Origin: a virus
Reading direction: 5' to 3' (one strand)
Length of the DNA stretch: 64,000 bases
Virus record (IMG/VR): IMGVR_UViG_3300030060_007988
This document shows positions 3,486 through 34,314 of this stretch, one piece after another. A program made the position numbers and the translations under genes. The notes under the pieces are model-generated. The model saw only the letters and a list, made by a program, of their open reading frames with translations, did not search any database and was not told where the DNA came from. Position 1 is the first letter of the stretch. Each line of letters opens with the position of its first letter.

Positions 3486-5957
3486 ATGAGAGGGTTATTT
3501 CTAGAACCTATTGACAATGTAATACAGCAAGAGCTTGTTCGTAGGAGAAAAATACTATCGGCTGCAAACAGAAGTAAATCAGCAACAACAGGTACAAGTT
3601 TTGAATGGGAAGAATACTTTGGTAAAACTCCTTGGATAAAAATAGTATCTAATGCAATGATTAAAAAGGCTGATGGAAGTTATGATGATCAAATAAGATT
3701 AAATCATATTCTTCAATCAGGTGTTGTTGATCCAAATGCACTAATACCTGGTACATTGGCACAAACAGCCGACCTATTTAGGCCAGATATGAGAATGACT
3801 CCTCTCCCTGCTCTAACAAGATTAACTGTTGAAACAAAGGGAAAATTAGGATCAATCAAGGAAGCAAAATTTACATTCACAGTTTATCACGAAGATGACC
3901 TTGACCTATATGAACAATTATATATGGTACCTGGGGTAACATTATGTGTTGAATATGGATGGAGTATTTACCAAGGAGTTACTATAGGTCAAGATCCAAG
4001 CTTGGTATCAAAGGATGATTATGCAAAAGCAATAATTGACGGAGTATTTAATTCGGACGGACCAGGTAGATATGATGGTTTATTAGGAATAGTTAAAAAC
4101 TTTAATTATAGTGTACAGCCAGATGGTTCATATGAATGTAGTGTAGAAGCAACAAGTCCTAATTCAATATTAATGGGTCTCACCAATCAGGATAGTGACA
4201 GATATCCTAAGTATGAAATGGTAATGGAAAACCAAGATGGTGAACCAGGACAAGTTAGACCTGTAAGACCAACGTCAATGATATATAGAATTTTAAGAAA
4301 GGGTGGATTAACAAAGGATGATTTAGATGGTACAGGAATATTAAAATATAATATATATGATACAGCTGCCGCTTCACCTAAAGAGGCTACTGGAAAAACA
4401 ATACTTGCCAACGCAGGCATAAAGGCTGACGGGGATTCACTACCCCACTGGATGAAAGTAAAAAGAGGTGATGAAAAATATAAGTACTATCATATAGTTG
4501 AACGTGAAGAAAATAAATATAAAGTAAATGGAACAGATTATGGTGCAGTAACTGGAGAAGAATCTGCCGTTATTGGATTTGAAACTTTATTTTCAGGTGA
4601 ATCAAAATCAACTACATATGTATCATACGGGTTTGTAGAAGACATAATAGTAAATAAATTTATGACACCTTTAGCTGTAAATGATAATGGTGATAATAAA
4701 GGAATAGCCACATTTGCAAGTATAGTTCCAGAATCAGATGGAAGTGGAGGAATAGCTAGCCTAGAAGGTGTTAAAATTGCAAATCCTAAAGGATTAATAT
4801 CATGTGATCCAAAAATATGTATACTACCAGGACAACAAAATATATTCACTAATGACAATGATGCAAAAGCATTAGCTGAAGAAGAATTCAATAAAACATA
4901 TTTGTCTGAAAAACAAAAGAAGGCATATAAAAAGGCCAAACAAAAGGCGCCAAAATTTAAAGATGAAGCACACTATAGGCATATAAATACTCCAGGTGAT
5001 TTTGCAAGATTCCAAGAAAAGGATGTAAAATCTAGACTTCAACAAGATGGAAAAGGTGAAACTCTAAATGCCTTTGATGCAGGTGATAACAAAGGATATC
5101 TTAGAAACATAATGATAAATTTAGATGTTGTAGAGCGTGCACTTCAATCCGTAAGAGACGATGAAAAAGTAAATGCAGTACAGTCATTTTTAATATCAAT
5201 TTTAAACAATGTAAATAGTGCATGCGGAGGTGTATGGGATTTTGTTGTTAGAACAGTTGATGAAGGAATATGGCCAAGATGTACAGTAATGGATGCATCT
5301 GAATCTGAAGATGTAGAGGTTAGTGATGGACCATCTGAACAATTTCAAGATGTTTTTGATTTAGGAGGCCTTTCAAAGTTTACACTATTACAGTCAATGA
5401 CAATGCAATCAAAGATACCTAATGGAATGAAGGCTATGGCGTATTTAGGTGCTGTGTCTAAATTATCCGATGGAGGTCAAGCAAAAAAGACCTTTGGCCA
5501 AAGTGCATATTCAAATAGCGTTGTTGATAGACTAACACAGAGTAGTGATATAGCATCAGACATTGAAGAACAAGAAAAGAGTGTAGAGACAGACCCTCAA
5601 GGAAACCCAACCGGAGATGCAGAGTCAGCAAAGACAAGAATGATTTTGTCACACTGGGTTCATACAGGTGGAGACGAAACTGCAATATCTGATACTAAGG
5701 AAGCATTAAAGGAATATGTGTTACAGGAAGAGTCAACAGGAAATGGTCACTATAAGGCACCAATACTTGCAATGGAAGGAGACTTTACACTTGAGGGTAT
5801 AAGTGGAATATTTATAGGTGCAGCCGTTACATCAAAACATGGACTTCCTAAAAGGAACCAAGATAGGGTTGCATTTCAGGTAATGGGTGTTTCACATAAC
5901 ATTGATGGAAAAACATGGACAACACAACTTAGAGGTATGATGAGAATAGTTTCATAA
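3486..5957 (+). CDS. Baseplate hub-like protein
   Basis: Follows the LysM gene; has VEYGW, GIVKNFNYS and a C-terminal FQVMGVSHNIDGKTWTTQL hub-type strand. Confidence 0.55.
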   Translation: MRGLFLEPIDNVIQQELVRRRKILSAANRSKSATTGTSFEWEEYFGKTPWIKIVSNAMIKKADGSYDDQIRLNHILQSGVVDPNALIPGTLAQTADLFRPDMRMTPLPALTRLTVETKGKLGSIKEAKFTFTVYHEDDLDLYEQLYMVPGVTLCVEYGWSIYQGVTIGQDPSLVSKDDYAKAIIDGVFNSDGPGRYDGLLGIVKNFNYSVQPDGSYECSVEATSPNSILMGLTNQDSDRYPKYEMVMENQDGEPGQVRPVRPTSMIYRILRKGGLTKDDLDGTGILKYNIYDTAAASPKEATGKTILANAGIKADGDSLPHWMKVKRGDEKYKYYHIVEREENKYKVNGTDYGAVTGEESAVIGFETLFSGESKSTTYVSYGFVEDIIVNKFMTPLAVNDNGDNKGIATFASIVPESDGSGGIASLEGVKIANPKGLISCDPKICILPGQQNIFTNDNDAKALAEEEFNKTYLSEKQKKAYKKAKQKAPKFKDEAHYRHINTPGDFARFQEKDVKSRLQQDGKGETLNAFDAGDNKGYLRNIMINLDVVERALQSVRDDEKVNAVQSFLISILNNVNSACGGVWDFVVRTVDEGIWPRCTVMDASESEDVEVSDGPSEQFQDVFDLGGLSKFTLLQSMTMQSKIPNGMKAMAYLGAVSKLSDGGQAKKTFGQSAYSNSVVDRLTQSSDIASDIEEQEKSVETDPQGNPTGDAESAKTRMILSHWVHTGGDETAISDTKEALKEYVLQEESTGNGHYKAPILAMEGDFTLEGISGIFIGAAVTSKHGLPKRNQDRVAFQVMGVSHNIDGKTWTTQLRGMMRIVS

Positions 5958-7237: not shown

Positions 7238-7249
7238 TCATTAAAATAT

Positions 7250-7278
7250 TTTTTTATTTCAATTATTTTTGTTATATT
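7250..7278 (+). promoter_or_regulatory. Phage promoter motif TTTTTTAT-N13-GTTATATT, copy 1
   Basis: Exact bipartite motif with 13-nt spacer, upstream of the polA-like gene; 7 copies in the window. Confidence 0.75.
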
Positions 7279-7292
7279 ATAGACAATAAGTT

Positions 7293-8624
7293 ATGTTTAC
7301 AGAAAAAGAAAAATTACCAATTTTATTAGATATAGTTAATAAAGAACCTATAGTTGCATTACCAATAATGTCTGATTATAGCAAACACTATATGAATAGT
7401 GATATTAGTTTTCTATACATATTTACAGTAAAATCAAATAAGGAATTTATTATTTCATATAATCATTATGATATAGAAAGTAACATAACATATTCTAAAG
7501 ACCTACTAAAAAACTGCCCACAAATACATGTTTGGGATAGTAAAATATTTAGAAACCTATATATAAATGATAATGTAATTGATCATGGATTGATTAATTA
7601 TTTAGATATTAACTCCCAGCTAGACGCACAAAATTATGAAACACATACTCATAAATTTTATCAAAATGAATATTGGAAATATGGAAATATAAATAACATA
7701 ATACCAATAATGAAACATCTAGAAACATGTAGGCACATGACTAAATTGATCACCAATAAAATATCAATAGATTTACCAGAATCGTTTACACCATACAATG
7801 ATGATGTTATTAGAGTATATTCTCAAATTGAAAAATCAGGTTTATGTATTAATACTAATGAATTTTTAGAATCATTTGGTAAATATTCAAAAAAACATAT
7901 AAAAAACAATACTGTATTTACTCAATATAATATGTATACAACTACAGGCCGACCAAGTAATAGTCATGGTGGAGTAAACTATGCTGCACTTAATAAAGAT
8001 GATGGTTCACGTAAATGTTTTATTAGTAGACATGAAAATGGACGTTTAGTTGAATTTGATTTTGATTCATATCACTTAAGATTGATAGCAACAATAATAA
8101 ATGAAAAATTACCTGATTCTTCCATTCATAAATACTTTGGAAAAATGTATTTCAATAAAGAAAATCTATCGGCAGCTGAATATGTAAAGTCTAAAGAAAT
8201 ATCATTCAAAATATTGTATGGCGGTGTACCTGATGAATATAAACATATACCATTTTTTTCAAAAATAGATAGATTTATTAATGATTTATATAATGATATG
8301 CTAACATTTGGTTATGTAAAAACAGCATTGCTAAATAGAAAAATGATTGGTAAAAATTATGAATCATTAACCAGAACTAAACTATTTAATTATTACATAC
8401 AGGCAATGGAAACTGAAAGTAATGTAATAATGTTCGATAAAATACTAAACCTATTAAATGGTAAAAACACCAACCTAGTTTTAACCACATATGATTCTTT
8501 ACTTTTTGATTTTGATATTAATGAAGGAAAAAAATTACTAAATGATATAGAGTTATGTTTTGACTATCCTGTTAAAATGTCCGTTGGCAAAAATTATGAT
8601 TCAATGAAAATAGTGAATAAATAA
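7293..8624 (+). CDS. Short family-A DNA polymerase-like protein (no recognisable exonuclease motifs)
   Basis: TTTGRPSN, motif A EFDFDSYHLR, motif B KEISFKILYG, motif C TTYDSLLFD. Confidence 0.8.
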   Translation: MFTEKEKLPILLDIVNKEPIVALPIMSDYSKHYMNSDISFLYIFTVKSNKEFIISYNHYDIESNITYSKDLLKNCPQIHVWDSKIFRNLYINDNVIDHGLINYLDINSQLDAQNYETHTHKFYQNEYWKYGNINNIIPIMKHLETCRHMTKLITNKISIDLPESFTPYNDDVIRVYSQIEKSGLCINTNEFLESFGKYSKKHIKNNTVFTQYNMYTTTGRPSNSHGGVNYAALNKDDGSRKCFISRHENGRLVEFDFDSYHLRLIATIINEKLPDSSIHKYFGKMYFNKENLSAAEYVKSKEISFKILYGGVPDEYKHIPFFSKIDRFINDLYNDMLTFGYVKTALLNRKMIGKNYESLTRTKLFNYYIQAMETESNVIMFDKILNLLNGKNTNLVLTTYDSLLFDFDINEGKKLLNDIELCFDYPVKMSVGKNYDSMKIVNK

Positions 8625-11708: not shown

Positions 11709-12479
11709 ATGGCATTAGATTTAGAAGCTATAAGACAAAAGTTAAATAACTTACAAAGTCAAACTGGAAAACAGGATAACTTATGGAAACCTGAACCAGG
11801 AAAAAATCAAATTAGAATTGTACCATATCAGTATAATAAAGATAACCCGTTTATTGAATTATACTTTCATTATGATTTAGGTAAGAAAAACTACTTATCA
11901 CCTATTACATTTGGTGAAGCTGACCCAGCAGTTGAATTTGCTGAAAAGTTAAAAGCAACTGGAAATCAAGATGATTGGAAAATGGCAAGAAAACTAGAAC
12001 CAAAAATGAGATGTTATGTACCTGTATTAATTAGAGGTAAAGAATCAGAAGGTGTTAAATTTTGGGGATTTGGTAAAACTGTATATCAAGAACTGTTAAG
12101 TTTCATAGCAGACCCAGATTATGGTGACATTACTGATTTAAGATCAGGTAGAGATGTTGTAGTTGAGTATCTTACACCAGAAGAAGCAGGTAATAGTTTT
12201 GGTAAAACAACAATTAGAGTTAAGCCAAATCAAACAGCTGCAACAGAAGATAAAAATGTTGCTGAAAAAGTTGTAAGTGGTCAAAAAGATATAAACGAAA
12301 TCTTTAGAAAAGTTTCATACGATGATTTAAAAGCTGCATTGGAAACTTGGTTAGATCCAGAAAGTGAATCAGGAGAAAGTCCTTCACCAACTGGAAATGG
12401 TCAAACTACACAAGCAGATACAACAGTTAAAAAGACTGATGATATATCGGCAGCATTTGATAATTTGTTTGATAACTAG
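11709..12479 (+). CDS. Single-stranded DNA-binding protein (T4 gp32-like)
   Basis: LWKPEPGKNQIRIVP, VKFWGFGKTVYQEL, DYGDITD..GRD; acidic/aromatic tail AFDNLFDN. Confidence 0.8.
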   Translation: MALDLEAIRQKLNNLQSQTGKQDNLWKPEPGKNQIRIVPYQYNKDNPFIELYFHYDLGKKNYLSPITFGEADPAVEFAEKLKATGNQDDWKMARKLEPKMRCYVPVLIRGKESEGVKFWGFGKTVYQELLSFIADPDYGDITDLRSGRDVVVEYLTPEEAGNSFGKTTIRVKPNQTAATEDKNVAEKVVSGQKDINEIFRKVSYDDLKAALETWLDPESESGESPSPTGNGQTTQADTTVKKTDDISAAFDNLFDN

Positions 12480-12489
12480 GAGGATATAG

Positions 12490-13617
12490 ATGGCAAAGAA
12501 AGTAACAACAAATAGAGATTCTTTAGCAGACATACTTGCTGACAGTTTAAATAAAAAGTTTAAAGACTATAAGGTTGCTTATTTTCTTGACGGTACTGAA
12601 GAAACTCCAACCGACCTAACAGAATGGATAAGCACAGGGTCATCAATGTTAGACATTGCAATTTCAAACAGAAAAAATGGTGGAATACCAGTTGGTAGAA
12701 TTACCGAAATAACTGGTCTGGAAGGAAGTGGTAAAAGTCTTATGGCTGCACATATTCTTGCAAATACACAAAAGCAAGGTGGTATGGCCGTATACATTGA
12801 TACTGAAAATGCTATGAACGAAGAATTTGCTCGAGCAGTAGGTATAGACATTAAAAATATGTTATACATACAATTGGAAACAATAGAGGAAATATTCGAG
12901 GTTATGGAAAACATAGTAACAAAAGTTAGGGAAGGTGATAGTGATAGGCTAGTTACCATAGTAGTTGATTCATTGGCTGGAGCTACAACTAAAGTTGAAA
13001 GCGAAGCTGACTATAGTAAAGACGGATGGGCTACTAGTAAGGCTATCATTTTGTCAAAAGCAATGAGAAAAATTACTCAAATGATTGGAAGACAGAGAAT
13101 ATGTGCTGTATTTACAAATCAGCTTAGACAAAAAATGGGAGTAATGTTTGGTGATCCTTGGACTACTTCTGGAGGAAAGGCAGTTGCTTTTCACTCTAGT
13201 TGTAGATTAAGGTTAAAGCCAATGGGTCAGATAAAGGCCAAGGTAGATGGCCAAGACCAGGTAATAGGAATAAAAACAGTTGCACAAGTTGTAAAAAATA
13301 GAATGGGACCACCATTAAGAAAATCACAATTTGAAATATACTTTGAAAGTGGAATTGATGATTTAGGTGGATGGTTACAGGTTATGAAAGACTACAAACT
13401 TGTAAAACAAGGAGGAAGTTGGTATACATATACTGATAAATCTGGTAAAGACCATAAATTTATGTCAAAGGATTGGAATGATTTACTAACAAACAATCCA
13501 GACCTAAAGCAAGAAATTTATGATTTAATAACTGAAACTGTTATTATGAACTATAAGGTTGATAATTTTGGAATTGATGATATTGAAATTAGCAATGAAC
13601 CGGTACCTGAAAATTAA
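12490..13617 (+). CDS. recA: RecA/UvsX recombinase
   Basis: GGIPVGRITEITGLEGSGKS (Walker A), YIDTENA, IVVDSLA (Walker B), FTNQLRQK, TSGGKA. Confidence 0.95.
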   Translation: MAKKVTTNRDSLADILADSLNKKFKDYKVAYFLDGTEETPTDLTEWISTGSSMLDIAISNRKNGGIPVGRITEITGLEGSGKSLMAAHILANTQKQGGMAVYIDTENAMNEEFARAVGIDIKNMLYIQLETIEEIFEVMENIVTKVREGDSDRLVTIVVDSLAGATTKVESEADYSKDGWATSKAIILSKAMRKITQMIGRQRICAVFTNQLRQKMGVMFGDPWTTSGGKAVAFHSSCRLRLKPMGQIKAKVDGQDQVIGIKTVAQVVKNRMGPPLRKSQFEIYFESGIDDLGGWLQVMKDYKLVKQGGSWYTYTDKSGKDHKFMSKDWNDLLTNNPDLKQEIYDLITETVIMNYKVDNFGIDDIEISNEPVPEN

Positions 13618-13633
13618 TATATCCTTATATGAT

Positions 13634-13921
13634 GGGAAGCAAGTCTTCCCTGAGTCTTACGATAACGGCCACCTTCACGTGGTGTAAGACGTTACGGTCA
13701 AAAGTCCTCACGAGTATAATGACTATTTTGATCAACTAAGAGCCGTAAATTTTAGTAGTATTAGAGGTAACATTGATTGGTCCAGTGACCCCAATTAAAT
13801 GTAAATAATATGACAGAACAAATAGTTTTGATGTAAAGCTGATACCAAGTGTCTTTTAACCGTCACTGTTGAAAGAAATAGAAAATACATCTAAATATTA
13901 GCTTCTAATACTACATTTTTT
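13634..13921 (+). ncRNA. Unassigned highly structured RNA (~290 nt) with a kissing-loop pseudoknot
   Basis: About ten stems, including a 13-bp long-range helix 13755-13767/13902-13914; loop-loop complementarity AGTGAC/GTCACT; several G-U pairs work only on the + strand; ends in a U-tract. Confidence 0.75.
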
Positions 13922-13932
13922 CTCTTAAAAAT

Positions 13933-13961
13933 TTTTTTATCCCAATTGTTTTGGTTATATT
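13933..13961 (+). promoter_or_regulatory. Promoter motif TTTTTTAT-N13-GTTATATT, copy 4
   Basis: Exact match upstream of the exonuclease-helicase genes. Confidence 0.75.
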
Positions 13962-13987
13962 TAATTAAATAAATAGATTAGAAGATT

Positions 13988-15034
13988 ATGAACAAAAAGT
14001 ATTTTTCAATTTTAGAAACACTAAAAGAAAATAAAAACACAGAATCAGGACCAAATGATAGGATATTACTTATTGATGGACTAAATACTTTCATTAGAAG
14101 TTTTGCAGCAAATCCAGTTACAAATGACGATGGAATTCATGTAGGAGGAATAACAGGATTTTTAATGTCAATAGGCTATGCAATTAGAAACATAAAACCA
14201 ACAAGAGTAATTATATGCTGGGATGGAAAAGGTGGTAGCCAAAGGCGTAGAAAATTGTTTCCGGAATATAAAGGAAATAGGCGTGTAAGATCTAGGTTAA
14301 CAAGACATGTTAGTATTGGAACTATGGAAGATGAAAAAGTTGCAATGAAAAACCAATTACTAAGACTTTCACAATATATTGATACATTACCTCTTCACAT
14401 GGTATCAGTGGAGAATATTGAAGCTGATGATTCTATTGCATATATATGCGAGCAATTGTATCCAAAGAGTCAAGTATTTATTATGTCAACTGATAAAGAC
14501 TTTATGCAACTTGTAAGTAATCGTGTAACAGTATGGTCACCAACAAAAAAGAAGTACTACTTTGCAGATACAATTAAAGAAGAATATGGAATCCATCCAA
14601 ATAATTTTTTAATGTTTAGAACAATAACAGGTGATGGTTCAGATAATATACCTGGAATACGTGGTGCAGGACTAAAGACATTAATAAATAGAATGCCTAT
14701 AATTGCAGGTAAAGAAAACATAACGGTTGATCAAATTGTTGAATTCTGTAAGAAAAATACAAATATTAAAATATTAAAAACAATTTCAGAGTCGGCTGAT
14801 TTATTAAACTTAAATTATGACTTAATGCAATTAAACAATGTTGATATATCAGGCTCGGCAAAATTAAAAATAAATAATTGTGTAAAGGAAAAAATACCAA
14901 GATTAGTTAAATATGAATTTTTAAAAATGATGATAGAGGATAACATAAACAATGCAATCAAAAACCCAGAGTTTTGGTTAAGAGATACTTTTCTATCGTT
15001 AGATACTTATGCAGGAATGACACATGGCAGATAA
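13988..15034 (+). CDS. rnh: 5'-3' exonuclease/flap endonuclease (T4 RNase H-like)
   Basis: LLIDGLN, WDG, RRKLFPEYKGNR, EADD, STDKDFMQL, GDGSDNIPGIRGAG. Confidence 0.92.
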   Translation: MNKKYFSILETLKENKNTESGPNDRILLIDGLNTFIRSFAANPVTNDDGIHVGGITGFLMSIGYAIRNIKPTRVIICWDGKGGSQRRRKLFPEYKGNRRVRSRLTRHVSIGTMEDEKVAMKNQLLRLSQYIDTLPLHMVSVENIEADDSIAYICEQLYPKSQVFIMSTDKDFMQLVSNRVTVWSPTKKKYYFADTIKEEYGIHPNNFLMFRTITGDGSDNIPGIRGAGLKTLINRMPIIAGKENITVDQIVEFCKKNTNIKILKTISESADLLNLNYDLMQLNNVDISGSAKLKINNCVKEKIPRLVKYEFLKMMIEDNINNAIKNPEFWLRDTFLSLDTYAGMTHGR

Positions 15035-19439: not shown

Positions 19440-20372
19440 ATGAAAAACTATTTAATTGGGTCAAATAATTATGCACTACTTGCTTCTTATCTTTTAAGTG
19501 ACATAACAATTATACCAACAAGTAAATTTGAAGCAAACAATGTAGAACCTGAATTCTTACCTAACACTCCGGAAATAATTAATATTGTAAATTCATTAGG
19601 ACTAAAATATAAGGTAAAAATATTAAATGCATTTTTTGATGATAGAGGCAAAATATCAACAGTACCTTCAGATTCATTTAAAAATGTATATGCACTATCA
19701 ACTAGGGGAAAACTTGCAGTTGAAAATAGTTACTTTGAAAAATTTAAAGGTAGCATGGAATATGTTTCAATAAAAAATAAAGGACCATTTGAAAGTTTCT
19801 ACTTACTATTTAAAGAGATTAAGAAAAATATTGTTCTTAAGGATATGATAGATTCTGAAATAGATTCTATTGGTGTTAAAGATAGTAACATAATATTATC
19901 AGATGGAAATATACTTGAATATAAAAGACTAATATGGACTGGTGATATAAAAAATTTAGATAAAAAACTTAATTTATTTACAAAAAAAATATATGTATAT
20001 GTATGTGAATACAATAACGAGGCTGATAAAAAAATGTCAAACTTTTTTAGCTTTGGATATTCAATAGGTAAAACATACTTTAGAACTATTTATTTAAAAG
20101 ACAAAATTGAATATCATTGTATGAAGAGAACATTTAAAGATGAAATTGATGGCAATAAAATAATAAACAGTTTTAATACAGAACAAATAATTGATAATTT
20201 AAGAAAAACAAACATGTATAATGTAGATCTAATAAGTATGTACTCACAGTGGAATTTAGGTTATTCAATTAGTCAAGCATACCGTGATTGTAAAGAATTG
20301 TATGAATATTACAATTTAGATAAAAAAATAGGTGATAATATTTTTAAATCCCAACAAAATTTGTTATATTAG
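19440..20372 (+). CDS. Hypothetical protein, possibly a degenerate FAD-dependent oxidoreductase/mutase fold
   Basis: N-terminal YLIGSNNYALLASYLL resembles a decayed Rossmann motif; DGNILEYKRLIWTG segment. Confidence 0.4.
   Translation: MKNYLIGSNNYALLASYLLSDITIIPTSKFEANNVEPEFLPNTPEIINIVNSLGLKYKVKILNAFFDDRGKISTVPSDSFKNVYALSTRGKLAVENSYFEKFKGSMEYVSIKNKGPFESFYLLFKEIKKNIVLKDMIDSEIDSIGVKDSNIILSDGNILEYKRLIWTGDIKNLDKKLNLFTKKIYVYVCEYNNEADKKMSNFFSFGYSIGKTYFRTIYLKDKIEYHCMKRTFKDEIDGNKIINSFNTEQIIDNLRKTNMYNVDLISMYSQWNLGYSISQAYRDCKELYEYYNLDKKIGDNIFKSQQNLLY
20342..20370 (+). promoter_or_regulatory. Promoter motif copy 5 (TTTTAAAT-N13-GTTATATT) heading the modification operon
   Basis: Same 13-nt spacing; two substitutions in the upstream box. 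Confidence 0.65.
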
Positions 20373-27555: not shown

Positions 27556-28803
27556 ATGAAACACGCAACAATAATTCCTTTAATAGGTGGCATGACACTT
27601 GCAAATAAAAAGATAACTGGTAAAGATCCAGAAGTTATATTATCATACTCACCGTTTAAGGCAAACGATAGTCACATAACTAAATATCTTCCAAAAGTAC
27701 CATATAAAGTATTAGATGATATGGGAGATGATGAAAAAAATATATTAATTGAAAAACTAAAAGGAAAACTTGATTTTGTTTCAACTGTTTGTCCTTGTGC
27801 AGGATTGGCAGGTACAAATACTGCACCTAAAACAAGTAGTAAAGGTCGTGGAGCACATGCAGAACAAAATCAATGGATGTATAAAAGTGCAAAGCTAATT
27901 TTAGAAGATATAAAACCAAAAGTATTTTGGGGAGAAAATGCGCCAGGCCTATTTACTAAAATGGGTGTAGAGGTTGCAGATAATCTTAGAAAAATTGGTG
28001 AAGATGCAGGATATAGCTTTTCAATGATTAAGACAAATACAGAGCTACATGGAATACCTCAGAGAAGAATTAGAACATTTTATTTTTTCTGGGATAGTCC
28101 TTCCCCACCACTCTTTAATTGGGTTAAGAGAGATACTCCAAAACTATTAGACTATCTTGGTGAAATACCAAAAGATGCAACACAATTTGATATGAGAATA
28201 TGGATGGATCCTGTTACTGTTAAATATCCACCATATAAATTTTTATTAGATAAATTAGGTTTGACTCATGAACAAATGGTTAAAAAAGTTGGAAAGGGAA
28301 CTGTATTTAGATATATGCAAGACAATGATTTATTTGATGAGTGCCTAGACTGGCTAAAAGTACACGCACCAAATGATGGTCCTAGTGGAGGAAAACCAGG
28401 AACAAATACTTATATTGATATCATTAATCATATAAAAAATAAATTGGCTGATGGGAAAGGATATTGGGATAGTTCACCGCATTTATTTCACGAATCATTT
28501 AATGCAGTTATTGGAAGAAATATGTTTGATGGTGTACATCCAATTGAAAATAGATATATGAGTGTTAGAGAATATATTCATATGATGGGAATGCCTCATG
28601 ACTTTGAACTTGACAATATTAAAAACATAAATCATATTGCACAAAATGTTCCTGTAGGTACGGCATCAGATATGACCCAACATGTTGTTGATTATATAAA
28701 CGGAAAGTCATCATTATCAGATTCAAAGTTTTTAAAACAAGATAATGTTTCTAGAAAAACTGATGTAATTACAAATGAAAAACAACTTGAACTTTTTTCA
28801 TAA
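27556..28803 (+). CDS. C5-cytosine DNA methyltransferase-like protein with atypical motif I
   Basis: Motif I IPLIGG (normally FxGxGG), IV CPCAG, VI ENAP, VIII PQRRIRTF, X AQNVP; C-terminal QLELFS. Confidence 0.8.
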   Translation: MKHATIIPLIGGMTLANKKITGKDPEVILSYSPFKANDSHITKYLPKVPYKVLDDMGDDEKNILIEKLKGKLDFVSTVCPCAGLAGTNTAPKTSSKGRGAHAEQNQWMYKSAKLILEDIKPKVFWGENAPGLFTKMGVEVADNLRKIGEDAGYSFSMIKTNTELHGIPQRRIRTFYFFWDSPSPPLFNWVKRDTPKLLDYLGEIPKDATQFDMRIWMDPVTVKYPPYKFLLDKLGLTHEQMVKKVGKGTVFRYMQDNDLFDECLDWLKVHAPNDGPSGGKPGTNTYIDIINHIKNKLADGKGYWDSSPHLFHESFNAVIGRNMFDGVHPIENRYMSVREYIHMMGMPHDFELDNIKNINHIAQNVPVGTASDMTQHVVDYINGKSSLSDSKFLKQDNVSRKTDVITNEKQLELFS

Positions 28804-28808
28804 AATAT

Positions 28809-28837
28809 TTTTTTATATCGTGAGAAATGGTTATATT
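28809..28837 (+). promoter_or_regulatory. Promoter motif TTTTTTAT-N13-GTTATATT, copy 6
   Basis: Exact match upstream of the polB unit. Confidence 0.75.
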
Positions 28838-28843
28838 TAATAT

Positions 28844-29071
28844 ATGTCACCGGAAATACAAAAAATAATATATGAAGCAGCCATAAAGGCAGGTGATGAA
28901 CTAAAAGGTAAACTGCCTCCCCACCGCTTTCATCCTAATGGAAGAAACTCATATGCACATGTATTCGAGAGAATAAAAAGTAAAATGGGTAAAAGCTATA
29001 AGGAATGTCAAGACTGGGAGGCAGATAAAATATTGGATTTAATAGAATACTATGTTGAAAATCCATGCTAA
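28844..29071 (+). CDS. Hypothetical protein
   Basis: ORF directly after the promoter; HPNGRNSYAH. Confidence 0.65.
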   Translation: MSPEIQKIIYEAAIKAGDELKGKLPPHRFHPNGRNSYAHVFERIKSKMGKSYKECQDWEADKILDLIEYYVENPC

Positions 29072-34279: not shown

Positions 34280-34280
34280 T

Positions 34281-34309
34281 TTTTTTATCCCAATAGAAAT
34301 GGTTATATT
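34281..34309 (+). promoter_or_regulatory. Promoter motif TTTTTTAT-N13-GTTATATT, copy 7
   Basis: Exact match. Confidence 0.75.
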
Positions 34310-34314
34310 TAGTT

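Follow-up and report, generated by a model that had tools for sequence, protein, structure and literature searches.

What is encoded in the 370 nucleotides (nt) between recA and the following exonuclease gene of a large uncultured marine phage? The locus lies in IMG/VR virus record IMGVR_UViG_3300030060_007988, analysed here as a stretch of 64,000 nt (the window), and an earlier sequence-only reading had placed in this gap one unassigned structured RNA of about 290 nt (13634-13921) with a loop-loop pseudoknot. The extent of the gap was borne out by the recA stop at 13617 and the next start at 13988 (spacer 13618-13987). The single RNA was not: two modules are present, which in related phages are found apart and in either order. 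Both probably act as independent + strand elements, the first, a hepatitis delta virus (HDV)-like self-cleaving ribozyme, cutting the transcript, and the second, here called module 2, being a discrete stable RNA that binds a partner.

That the spacer specifies a structured + strand RNA was correctly recognized in the earlier reading, and inspection of the sequence confirmed all of the helices listed there at their positions. The + strand of 13618-13987 folds with -80.4 kcal/mol (z = -3.06), and none of 100 shuffled controls folded as well; for the - strand the z-score is -1.95, and 3 of 100 shuffles did as well. On the opposite strand many of the conserved G-U pairs would turn into A-C mismatches, and the G-U pairs found in many helices fit only a + strand RNA. 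The spacer sits within a block of replication and recombination genes, where its conservation might stem from a role of the DNA itself, for instance as a site of replication initiation, packaging or recombination. The G-U pairs and the better folding of the + strand argue against this, as does the covariation in a pseudoknot and between two loops (see below), which would be meaningless in duplex DNA; a DNA element is scarcely credible here.

Related loci were collected by a RecA search, yielding 80 viral contigs, and by a DNA pattern based on loop L3 of the ribozyme, yielding 74 stretches, of which some 40 truly belong to the family. Alignment A4 comprises 36 distinct ribozyme sequences from marine viral contigs, 74-82% identical to the window. 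The following elements were assigned in the 5' half of the spacer:

13654-13746, + strand: HDV-like self-cleaving ribozyme, very probable from covariation (A4), the covariance model R1 and a weak RF02682 match; predicted cut 5' of G13654 (13653/13654)
13654-60 with 13684-90, + strand: P1, GUCUUAC/GUAAGAC
13665-70 with 13740 and 13742-46, + strand: P2, ACGGC plus C with G..GCCGU, A13741 being bulged
13671-73 with 13681-83, + strand: P3, ACC/GGU
13674-80, + strand: L3, UUCACGU
C13676-G13691, + strand: P1.1, a single candidate pair
13696-13706 with 13721-33, + strand: P4, about 11 base pairs (bp)
13707-20, + strand: L4, a 14-nt loop
13734-39, + strand: J4/2, AACUAA
13736, + strand: candidate catalytic cytosine (equivalent of HDV C75), first base of the C-N-A-A that runs into P2, invariant in 36 of 36 sequences

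In A4 the nested double pseudoknot formed by P1, P1.1, P2, P3 and P4 is paired in 98.8% of cells, with compensatory changes in 16 of 28 pairs; none of 500 shuffles scored as high (shuffled mean, 91.8% paired), and sliding the partners by 1-3 columns reduced pairing to 33-44%. Each defining helix is 96-100% paired across the 36 sequences, and compensatory changes are found in P1, P2, P3 and P4. P1 (A4 columns 3-9 with 34-40) is 99.6% paired, four of its seven pairs being compensatory. P2, which crosses P1, has seven pairs (96% paired, four compensatory); it is wholly replaced in L003/L004 (CAACA/UGUUG), and the C-G pair beside the bulged A has become U-A in L057 and L060. P3 is paired in all sequences, as GCC/GGC in L003/L004. 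Besides C13736, G1, the G after P1 (G41) and A13739 of J4/2 are invariant in all 36 sequences; L3 is UUCNCGU throughout, and J4/2 reads C-(U/C)-A-A before P2. The P1.1 pair can form in all 36 sequences, both bases being invariant, and the second position is U-U.

The start of L4 (13707-13712, (U)CCUCAC) is nearly invariant, with CNCAC in 36 of 36 sequences, while the rest of the loop varies freely. This motif may be a site of tertiary contact or of protein binding; no partner for it was found.

Database searches gave one lead in the same direction. With permissive settings, the sole structured-RNA candidate that Rfam returned in the window was RF02682, the Faecalibacterium prausnitzii HDV ribozyme, at 13654-13750 (18.3 bits, E = 0.63), with ACUAAGA of the window aligned by Infernal to J4/2 of that model (GCUAAGA). 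In L030 RF02682 reached 25.1 bits, the HDV ribozyme being the only Rfam family with any signal. The Rfam HDV models are narrow and do not score pseudoknots. The model R1, built from the ribozyme family itself, finds exactly one copy in the window (103.6 bits, E = 4e-24); five phage records of 78-171 kb likewise contain a single copy each, and 16 of 78 RecA loci are positive. A second R1 hit in the window (28777-28861, - strand; 12 bits, E = 0.87) is at chance level and was discarded. On this sequence evidence, 13654-13746 is very probably an HDV-like ribozyme with predicted self-cleavage; within this known class it represents a new subfamily found in a new context.

These helices redraw the 5' half of the sequence-only reading. 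Its GTCTTAC/GTAAGAC helix covaries and is P1, and its CAAAA/TTTTG and GTC/GAC pairings covary and belong to P4. GCCAC/GTGGT had been drawn in the wrong register, the conserved helix being P3, and the hairpin GGGAAG/CTTCCC, taken as part of the RNA, falls outside the ribozyme, on the recA mRNA side of the predicted cut. The ribozyme was missed because one strand of P2 had been paired with the wrong partner. The helix TTACGGT/GCCGTAA is pivotal for the earlier proposal of one integrated RNA of about 290 nt, in which a 5' domain of three nested hairpins, this helix among them, would act together with the 3' domain. Every helix so drawn, including this one of 7 bp, does exist in the window, and A4 column 45 changes there together with column 99. 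Across the alignment, however, TTACGGT/GCCGTAA is 72% paired with one compensatory cell, no better than shuffles, and it competes with P2 and P4; its GCCGU strand covaries with ACGGC as P2 instead. As the two domains are, moreover, separate and order-reversed in relatives, an integrated RNA is a remote prospect. The description of the RNA as unassigned holds for the 3' domain, which matches no Rfam family, tRNA or tmRNA, and fails for the 5' half. Likewise, the Rfam check returned no strong family hit (18.3 bits for RF02682 against a threshold of 44), yet the HDV-like structure and its covariation remove the novelty of the 5' domain.

The 3' half of the spacer is occupied by module 2, with the following parts:

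13755-13914, + strand: module 2, recA-3' kissing-loop RNA (covariance model R2, 109.5 bits, E = 5e-20, one copy in the window)
13755-67 with 13902-14, + strand: closing helix of 13 bp, seen in the sequence, window lineage only
13770-13802, + strand: hairpin H1, with stem core 13776-80 with 13791-95 and loop 13781-90 UCCAGUGACC
13784-13789, + strand: 5' strand of the kissing loop, AGUGAC, pairing with 13862-67
13862-13867, + strand: 3' strand of the kissing loop, GUCACU, within the H2 loop
13830-13891, + strand: conserved core (P-y, unpaired strand, H2 and strand 13877-85)
13830-35 with 13886-91, + strand: stem P-y, GAUGUA/UACAUC
13836-51, + strand: near-invariant unpaired strand, containing GCUGAUACCAA (13838-48)
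13852-60 with 13868-76, + strand: hairpin H2, with loop 13861-67 CGUCACU
13877-85, + strand: strand AAUAGAAAA, which in relatives is ACUAGAAAA
13916-13921, + strand: run of six U, abutting the closing helix, the probable transcript end in the window as judged from sequence

Alignment A7 (15 module 2 sequences) is paired in 89.7% of cells under this structure; none of 500 shuffles was as high, and slid controls reached at most 53%. Here the earlier reading fared better. Covariation upholds the core of its hairpin ACATTGATTGG/CCAATTAAATGT (H1), where five of five pairs are compensatory, as well as GATGTA/TACATC (P-y, four of six pairs) and the hairpin TCTTTTAAC/GTTGAAAGA (H2, two of nine pairs). 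The proposed pairing between the loops, AGTGAC at 13784-89 with GTCACT at 13862-67, covaries too: the kissing helix is 100% paired in the 15 sequences, one pair changing from A-U to G-C in six of them and another from G-C to A-U in L042. When RNAalifold was given the same alignment with no hints, this loop-loop helix was the only consensus helix returned. In subgroup B (L009, L012, L052, L054) UAUAGC/GCUAUA replaces GUGAC/GUCAC.

Conservation extends to unpaired bases. The 21 sequences compared, drawn from every subgroup, share the string GCUGA.ACCAA..GU without exception, and this unpaired strand and a second one, ACUAGAAA, hardly vary in any subgroup. The outer parts are less constant: the 13-bp closing helix and TAATAT/ATATTA belong to the window lineage only (identical copies in L001 and L002), group C has a 13-bp closing helix of its own, and groups A, B and D close the domain differently. 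A possible third pairing, GCU(G) at 13838-41 with (U)AGC at 13899-13902, is 97.8% pairable; its sides hardly vary, and two relatives break it.

How widely module 2 occurs was determined with the conserved word GCUGAYACCAA and the covariance model R2. It was found in 33 of 84 sources (83 loci and the window), once per locus and in each case starting no more than a few bases from the recA stop. When all viral contigs were scanned with a strict pattern, no contigs other than these recA contigs were returned. A metagenome scan for the core of groups A and D gave 15 hits, namely seven recA-adjacent contigs, seven coding or chance-like matches, and L169, a true copy cut off at the contig end, with no recA on the contig. 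Module 2 occurs alone in L005, L006, L025, L026, L028, L029, L035 and L042, upstream of the ribozyme in L030, L031, L112, L116, L120 and L143, and downstream of it in the window, L003 and L004; since it occurs alone, before or after the ribozyme, the two modules are independent. Module 2 is thus a separate RNA family and an uncatalogued motif.

Its identity was sought in several collections. In the window, Rfam 15 showed nothing over module 2 on its strand at E up to 10, and in L006, L013 and L030, representing three subgroups, it gave only chance hits over module 2 (E > 0.2, unrelated families). ARAGORN found neither tRNA nor tmRNA in the window, and a tmRNA- or tRNA-like reading of GGGCUGAU and UAGCUCAUUUGGUAG was dropped on this result and for want of a T-arm or a tag reading frame. 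The module 2 core pattern gave five hits in 185,579 bacterial and archaeal genomes, none of them credible: one, in a Bermanella metagenome-assembled genome, is inside an open reading frame (ORF) of 763 amino acids, and four in the high-GC genus Kribbella, left unread, are presumed to be chance matches.

Could module 2 be a self-cleaving ribozyme of a new class? Pistol, hatchet and twister-sister were discovered beside known ribozymes, and module 2 adjoins the HDV-like ribozyme in 9 of 18 copies of group A, group C or window type, a tenth lying within about 650 nt; its conserved junction and loop-loop contact recall hammerhead architecture, and strings CUGAUA and GAAA are present. The hammerhead itself was rejected, as module 2 has CUGAUAC where CUGAUGA is expected, GCUGAUACCAA has A-C in place of the core G8-A9 in 21 of 21 sequences, and no Rfam hammerhead hit was obtained. 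Given also that no ribozyme family hit appeared at E up to 10, that many copies have no ribozyme neighbour and that nothing marks a cleavage site, a new self-cleaving class is very improbable.

The surroundings of the ribozyme in relatives bear on what its cut would accomplish. In the window the feature directly upstream is:

13634-13650, + strand: hairpin GGGAAG/CTTCCC with loop CAAGU (sequence and minimum free energy fold), ending 3 nt before the predicted cut

After cleavage, this hairpin would form the 3' terminus of the recA mRNA. About 22 of 31 homologous ribozyme loci likewise have a hairpin, unrelated in sequence, whose 3' end falls 0-4 nt short of G1; these hairpins are stable and long, with stems of up to 18 bp, and where module 2 is upstream of the ribozyme, its closing helix takes their place. 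The genomic HDV ribozyme is said to have a hairpin, P(-1), that sequesters the sequence 5' of the cut and prevents ribozyme misfolding; 13634-50 and the hairpins of the relatives have the same placement, and could in addition protect the 3' end of the mRNA upstream of the cut. In L108 (~1840-1870), L109 and L128 the hairpin is replaced by AT-rich sequence in which a TATAAT-like box lies about 7 nt before G1, and there the ribozyme may be at the very start of the transcript.

On the 3' side, a tRNA begins 2-5 nt past the ribozyme in several loci: tRNA-Ala(UGC) in L030:3250-3324, L031:2751-2825, L032:1918-1992 and L142:13643-13717(-), and tRNA-Gln(UUG) in L098:9888-9959(-). The ribozyme would therefore become part of the tRNA 5' leader. 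Otherwise it is followed by module 2 (window, L003, L004) or, elsewhere, by the promoter and start of the next gene. The flanking genes vary (recA/FEN, small ORFs, an Hsp20 homologue, an S21-like protein); they are co-directional, and the ribozyme between them is always in their orientation.

In the mechanism proposed here, the ribozyme, with its full P4, would fold into the nested double pseudoknot after transcription, and C13736 of J4/2 would help the 2'-OH of A13653 to attack the phosphate that precedes G13654. One product would be recA mRNA that has the 13634-50 hairpin at its 3' end and terminates in a 2',3'-cyclic phosphate; the other would be an RNA of about 270 nt with a 5'-OH on G13654, composed of the ribozyme and module 2 and ending at the closing helix and the U run. 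Module 2 would form a compact junction RNA, in which the loops of hairpins on different arms pair (13784-89 with 13862-67) and this kissing contact fixes the shape of the near-invariant internal loop, GCUGAUACCAA opposite AUAGAAAA. As a stable, tertiary-locked non-coding RNA from the recA 3' untranslated region (UTR), it would offer the conserved loop to a protein or a small ligand. We lean towards a discrete released RNA; any specific function for it is much less certain.

Several observations weigh against this mechanism. First, at gathering level Rfam gave zero hits over the whole window, the HDV models staying below their threshold (44). Second, P1.1, as a single invariant C-G pair, is beyond the reach of covariation. 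Third, the closing pair at G1 is the usual G.U in 33 of 36 sequences and G-C in the other three, the window among them, and a 7-bp alternative helix, 13692-98 with 13742-48, is possible in the window and would block P2 and P4; because of these two features the window ribozyme might be slow or regulated. Fourth, within module 2, subgroup D keeps the conserved core but loop-loop complementarity was not seen there, and the window has A for the C of the relatives in ACUAG (AAUAG). Fifth, a search of the window for antisense targets of the conserved loop gave 22 matches where 16.5 were expected, and none stood out. Sixth, the transcript data bearing on cleavage are assembled contigs, which cannot reveal RNA ends: pieces of the stretch (13455-13635, 13695-13864 and 13766-13922) occur as contigs in four marine metatranscriptome runs of one study, none spanning 13636-13694 and one stopping just past the U run, which shows presence in RNA libraries only, with DNA carry-over possible. 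Finally, every true module 2 hit in three collections is linked to recA, which fits a role in cis better than a released RNA.

The third of these points deserves a closer look. A4 columns 16, 45 and 99 (13666, 13695 and 13745) are A, A and U in relatives and C, C and G in the window; as the three positions change together, two partners are open to the 3' strand of P2, its regular one and 13692-98. A different 5-bp alternative, GUUAA/UUAAC, is kept in L003/L004; the evidence for an alternative helix amounts to one or two events. It could be a conserved inactive conformer. Carried further, the window copy might be a crippled or conditionally active relic, with the spacer transcribed as a single uncut 3' UTR: G1-C occurs in just 3 of 36 sequences, and the alternative is strongest in the window (7 bp), another form being kept in L003/L004. 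However, HDV-type ribozymes tolerate G1-C, all other core positions are intact in a copy that scores 103.6 bits, and the A-U to C-G change in P2 is compensated, which makes such a relic improbable.

The linkage to recA raises another possibility, that module 2 is a 3'-terminal guard acting in cis on the recA (gp32-recA) mRNA, either by blocking 3'-to-5' exonucleases or by binding a factor that sets message lifetime. True copies are found directly past the recA stop and directly before whatever forms the 3' end, a terminator hairpin or the ribozyme, and loci that lack module 2 have a plain hairpin in the same place before the ribozyme. Yet in the window, L003 and L004 the ribozyme lies between recA and module 2, so that cleavage would detach the guard from its message, and the fold is nonetheless kept by compensatory changes between the window and L003; furthermore, the highly conserved unpaired nucleotides exceed the needs of a simple roadblock. 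A guard in cis is rather unlikely, and a discrete RNA remains the preferred reading of module 2.

The gene neighbourhood sets the limits of the transcript. The elements concerned are:

11709-12479: gp32-like single-stranded DNA-binding protein
12490-13617: RecA, directly 5' of the spacer
13988-15034: 5'-3' exonuclease/FEN, directly 3' of the spacer, followed by a DnaB-type helicase and the ribonucleotide reductase (RNR) small subunit
13932-13962, + strand: putative promoter of these downstream genes, TTTTTTTATCCCAA-N8-GGTTATATTTA, with related copies elsewhere

The distance between gp32 and recA is 10 nt. The motif at 13932 is one instance of a repeated promoter-like sequence, TTTTTTTAT(C/T)(C/T)CAA-N8-(T/G)GTTATATT(T/A), found 5' of several + strand genes (34280-34310, 20341-20371, 7249-7279 and ~28809-28840); because it recurs in this way, it probably represents a phage-specific class of promoter. 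Since both RNAs lie 5' of 13932, they belong to the 3' UTR at the end of the gp32-recA transcription unit; the promoter sets the downstream limit of the RNA and is not a part of it. No GC-rich terminator was found in the window between 13300 and 14200, and the transcript probably ends at the closing helix and the U run. Relatives have canonical GC-rich terminator hairpins directly 3' of module 2.

Such terminators allow module 2 to be read as a riboswitch-like or antitermination element, by which a ligand or RNA polymerase would control readthrough into the exonuclease, DnaB and RNR genes. A pseudoknot-type contact holds its invariant junction nucleotides, and an intrinsic terminator follows it immediately in groups A, B and D, which is the usual anatomy of aptamer and expression platform. 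On the other hand, inspection by eye revealed no conserved alternative pairing with the terminator stems, the downstream genes carry their own repeated promoter, group C has the ribozyme and a tRNA in place of the terminator, and there is no Rfam riboswitch match. Control of readthrough is quite unlikely.

Two further observations concern short strings near module 2. In L007 (~2575-2600) and L012 (~4215-4240), from groups D and B respectively, UAGCUCAU(U)UGGUAGGG bridges the conserved AGCU and the terminator stem 3' of module 2; it resembles a tRNA D-arm (UAGCUCAGUUGGUAGAGC), perhaps as the remnant of a tRNA gene once located here, or by coincidence. The ribosome-binding region of recA (12478-12492, AACUAGGAGGAUAUAGAUG) contains, probably by coincidence, ACUAG, the word that relatives conserve in the module 2 internal loop.

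The source phage has no close cultured relative, since the nearest cultured RecA, that of Microcystis phage Mel-JY01, shares 53% identity; a blastn search with the spacer had zero matches among 50,697 phage records. IMG/VR contig L001 (81 kb) is the same sequence as the window, and relatives reach 170 kb at 80% estimated completeness.

How do the two elements compare with known systems? The ribozyme shares with HDV-like ribozymes (HDV genomic and antigenomic, CPEB3, drz; RF00094, RF00622, RF02682) the nested double pseudoknot, a 7-bp P1 from G1, a 3-bp P3 with a 7-nt L3, a possible single C-G pair as P1.1, a P4, the C-N-A-A of J4/2 running into P2, and a predicted cut at its 5' edge. Its L3 (UUCACGU) and the G-U after P1 are presumably identical to those of the human CPEB3 ribozyme. 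It differs in scoring 18-25 bits against the Rfam threshold of 44, in its marine double-stranded DNA phage hosts, in the long P4 with a conserved CNCAC loop, in the bulged A of P2, and in an intercistronic position directly past an mRNA hairpin.

To our knowledge, natural roles of HDV-like ribozymes in bacteria and phages are few, and the best documented is the trimming of tRNA 3' trailers in gut phages. The theta ribozymes are minimal HDV-like ribozymes of gut Caudoviricetes, mostly Bacteroidota phages (Kienbeck et al., 2024, PMC10879173); their P4 is short or absent, the cut site abuts the 3' end of a tRNA and the 3' trailer is processed, and the theta motif was built by shortening L4 (PMC10879173). 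The marine family resembles them in being phage-encoded and HDV-like, in lying in non-coding spacers in sense orientation, and in sometimes neighbouring tRNA genes. In contrast to the minimal P4 and L4 of theta ribozymes, its P4 of about 11 bp with a 14-nt loop is conserved and covarying; its cut site follows an mRNA hairpin or module 2, the tRNAs of relatives being downstream of the ribozyme and not upstream, and with no tRNA in the window there is no cut within 5 nt of a tRNA 3' end. The L3 pattern also returned, as by-catch, a minimal HDV-like ribozyme in the theta arrangement (L137:5583-5660(+)), with G1 directly past the 3' end of tRNA-Thr (5582). Two more minimal HDV-like ribozymes were read by eye in L150:~3513-3600(+) and L105:~7525-7610(+); these and L137 are unrelated viral contigs with tRNA arrays.

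For module 2, the comparison is with rnaC and rnaD (species 1 and 2) of phage T4, stable phage-encoded non-coding RNAs of 119-139 nt that share a tRNA slot and are cut from a longer transcript. Module 2 is a non-coding RNA of similar size, and relatives have tRNA-Ala in its slot, instead of it or beside it; unlike the T4 RNAs, it is tied to recA and not to a tRNA cluster. With filters off, R2 gave no hit at the T4 rnaC/rnaD locus (70908-71171), the best locus hits being at chance level.

The ribozyme family is clearly distinct: its hosts are marine phages, its P4 is complete, it is present as a single copy per phage record searched, and its place is immediately 3' of the stem-loop that ends a message. 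In some relatives it directly precedes a tRNA or another structured RNA, and this placement points to a role in separating mRNA from a downstream stable RNA. Module 2 is a well-supported orphan motif with invariant unpaired bases, and such motifs have proved to be riboswitches, ribozymes or protein decoys. More speculatively, and distinctly unlikely on present evidence, it would be the founding member of a new functional class of RNA confined to a single clade of large uncultured marine phages; the kissing-loop scaffold would present GCUGAUACCAA and ACUAGAAAA as an aptamer or a catalytic core, and the HDV-like ribozyme would set the RNA ends. Both elements are short and hence directly testable at the bench; if the latter proposal were true, ribozyme and module 2 together would constitute a phage cassette for processing a functional RNA and freeing it from the recA 3' UTR.

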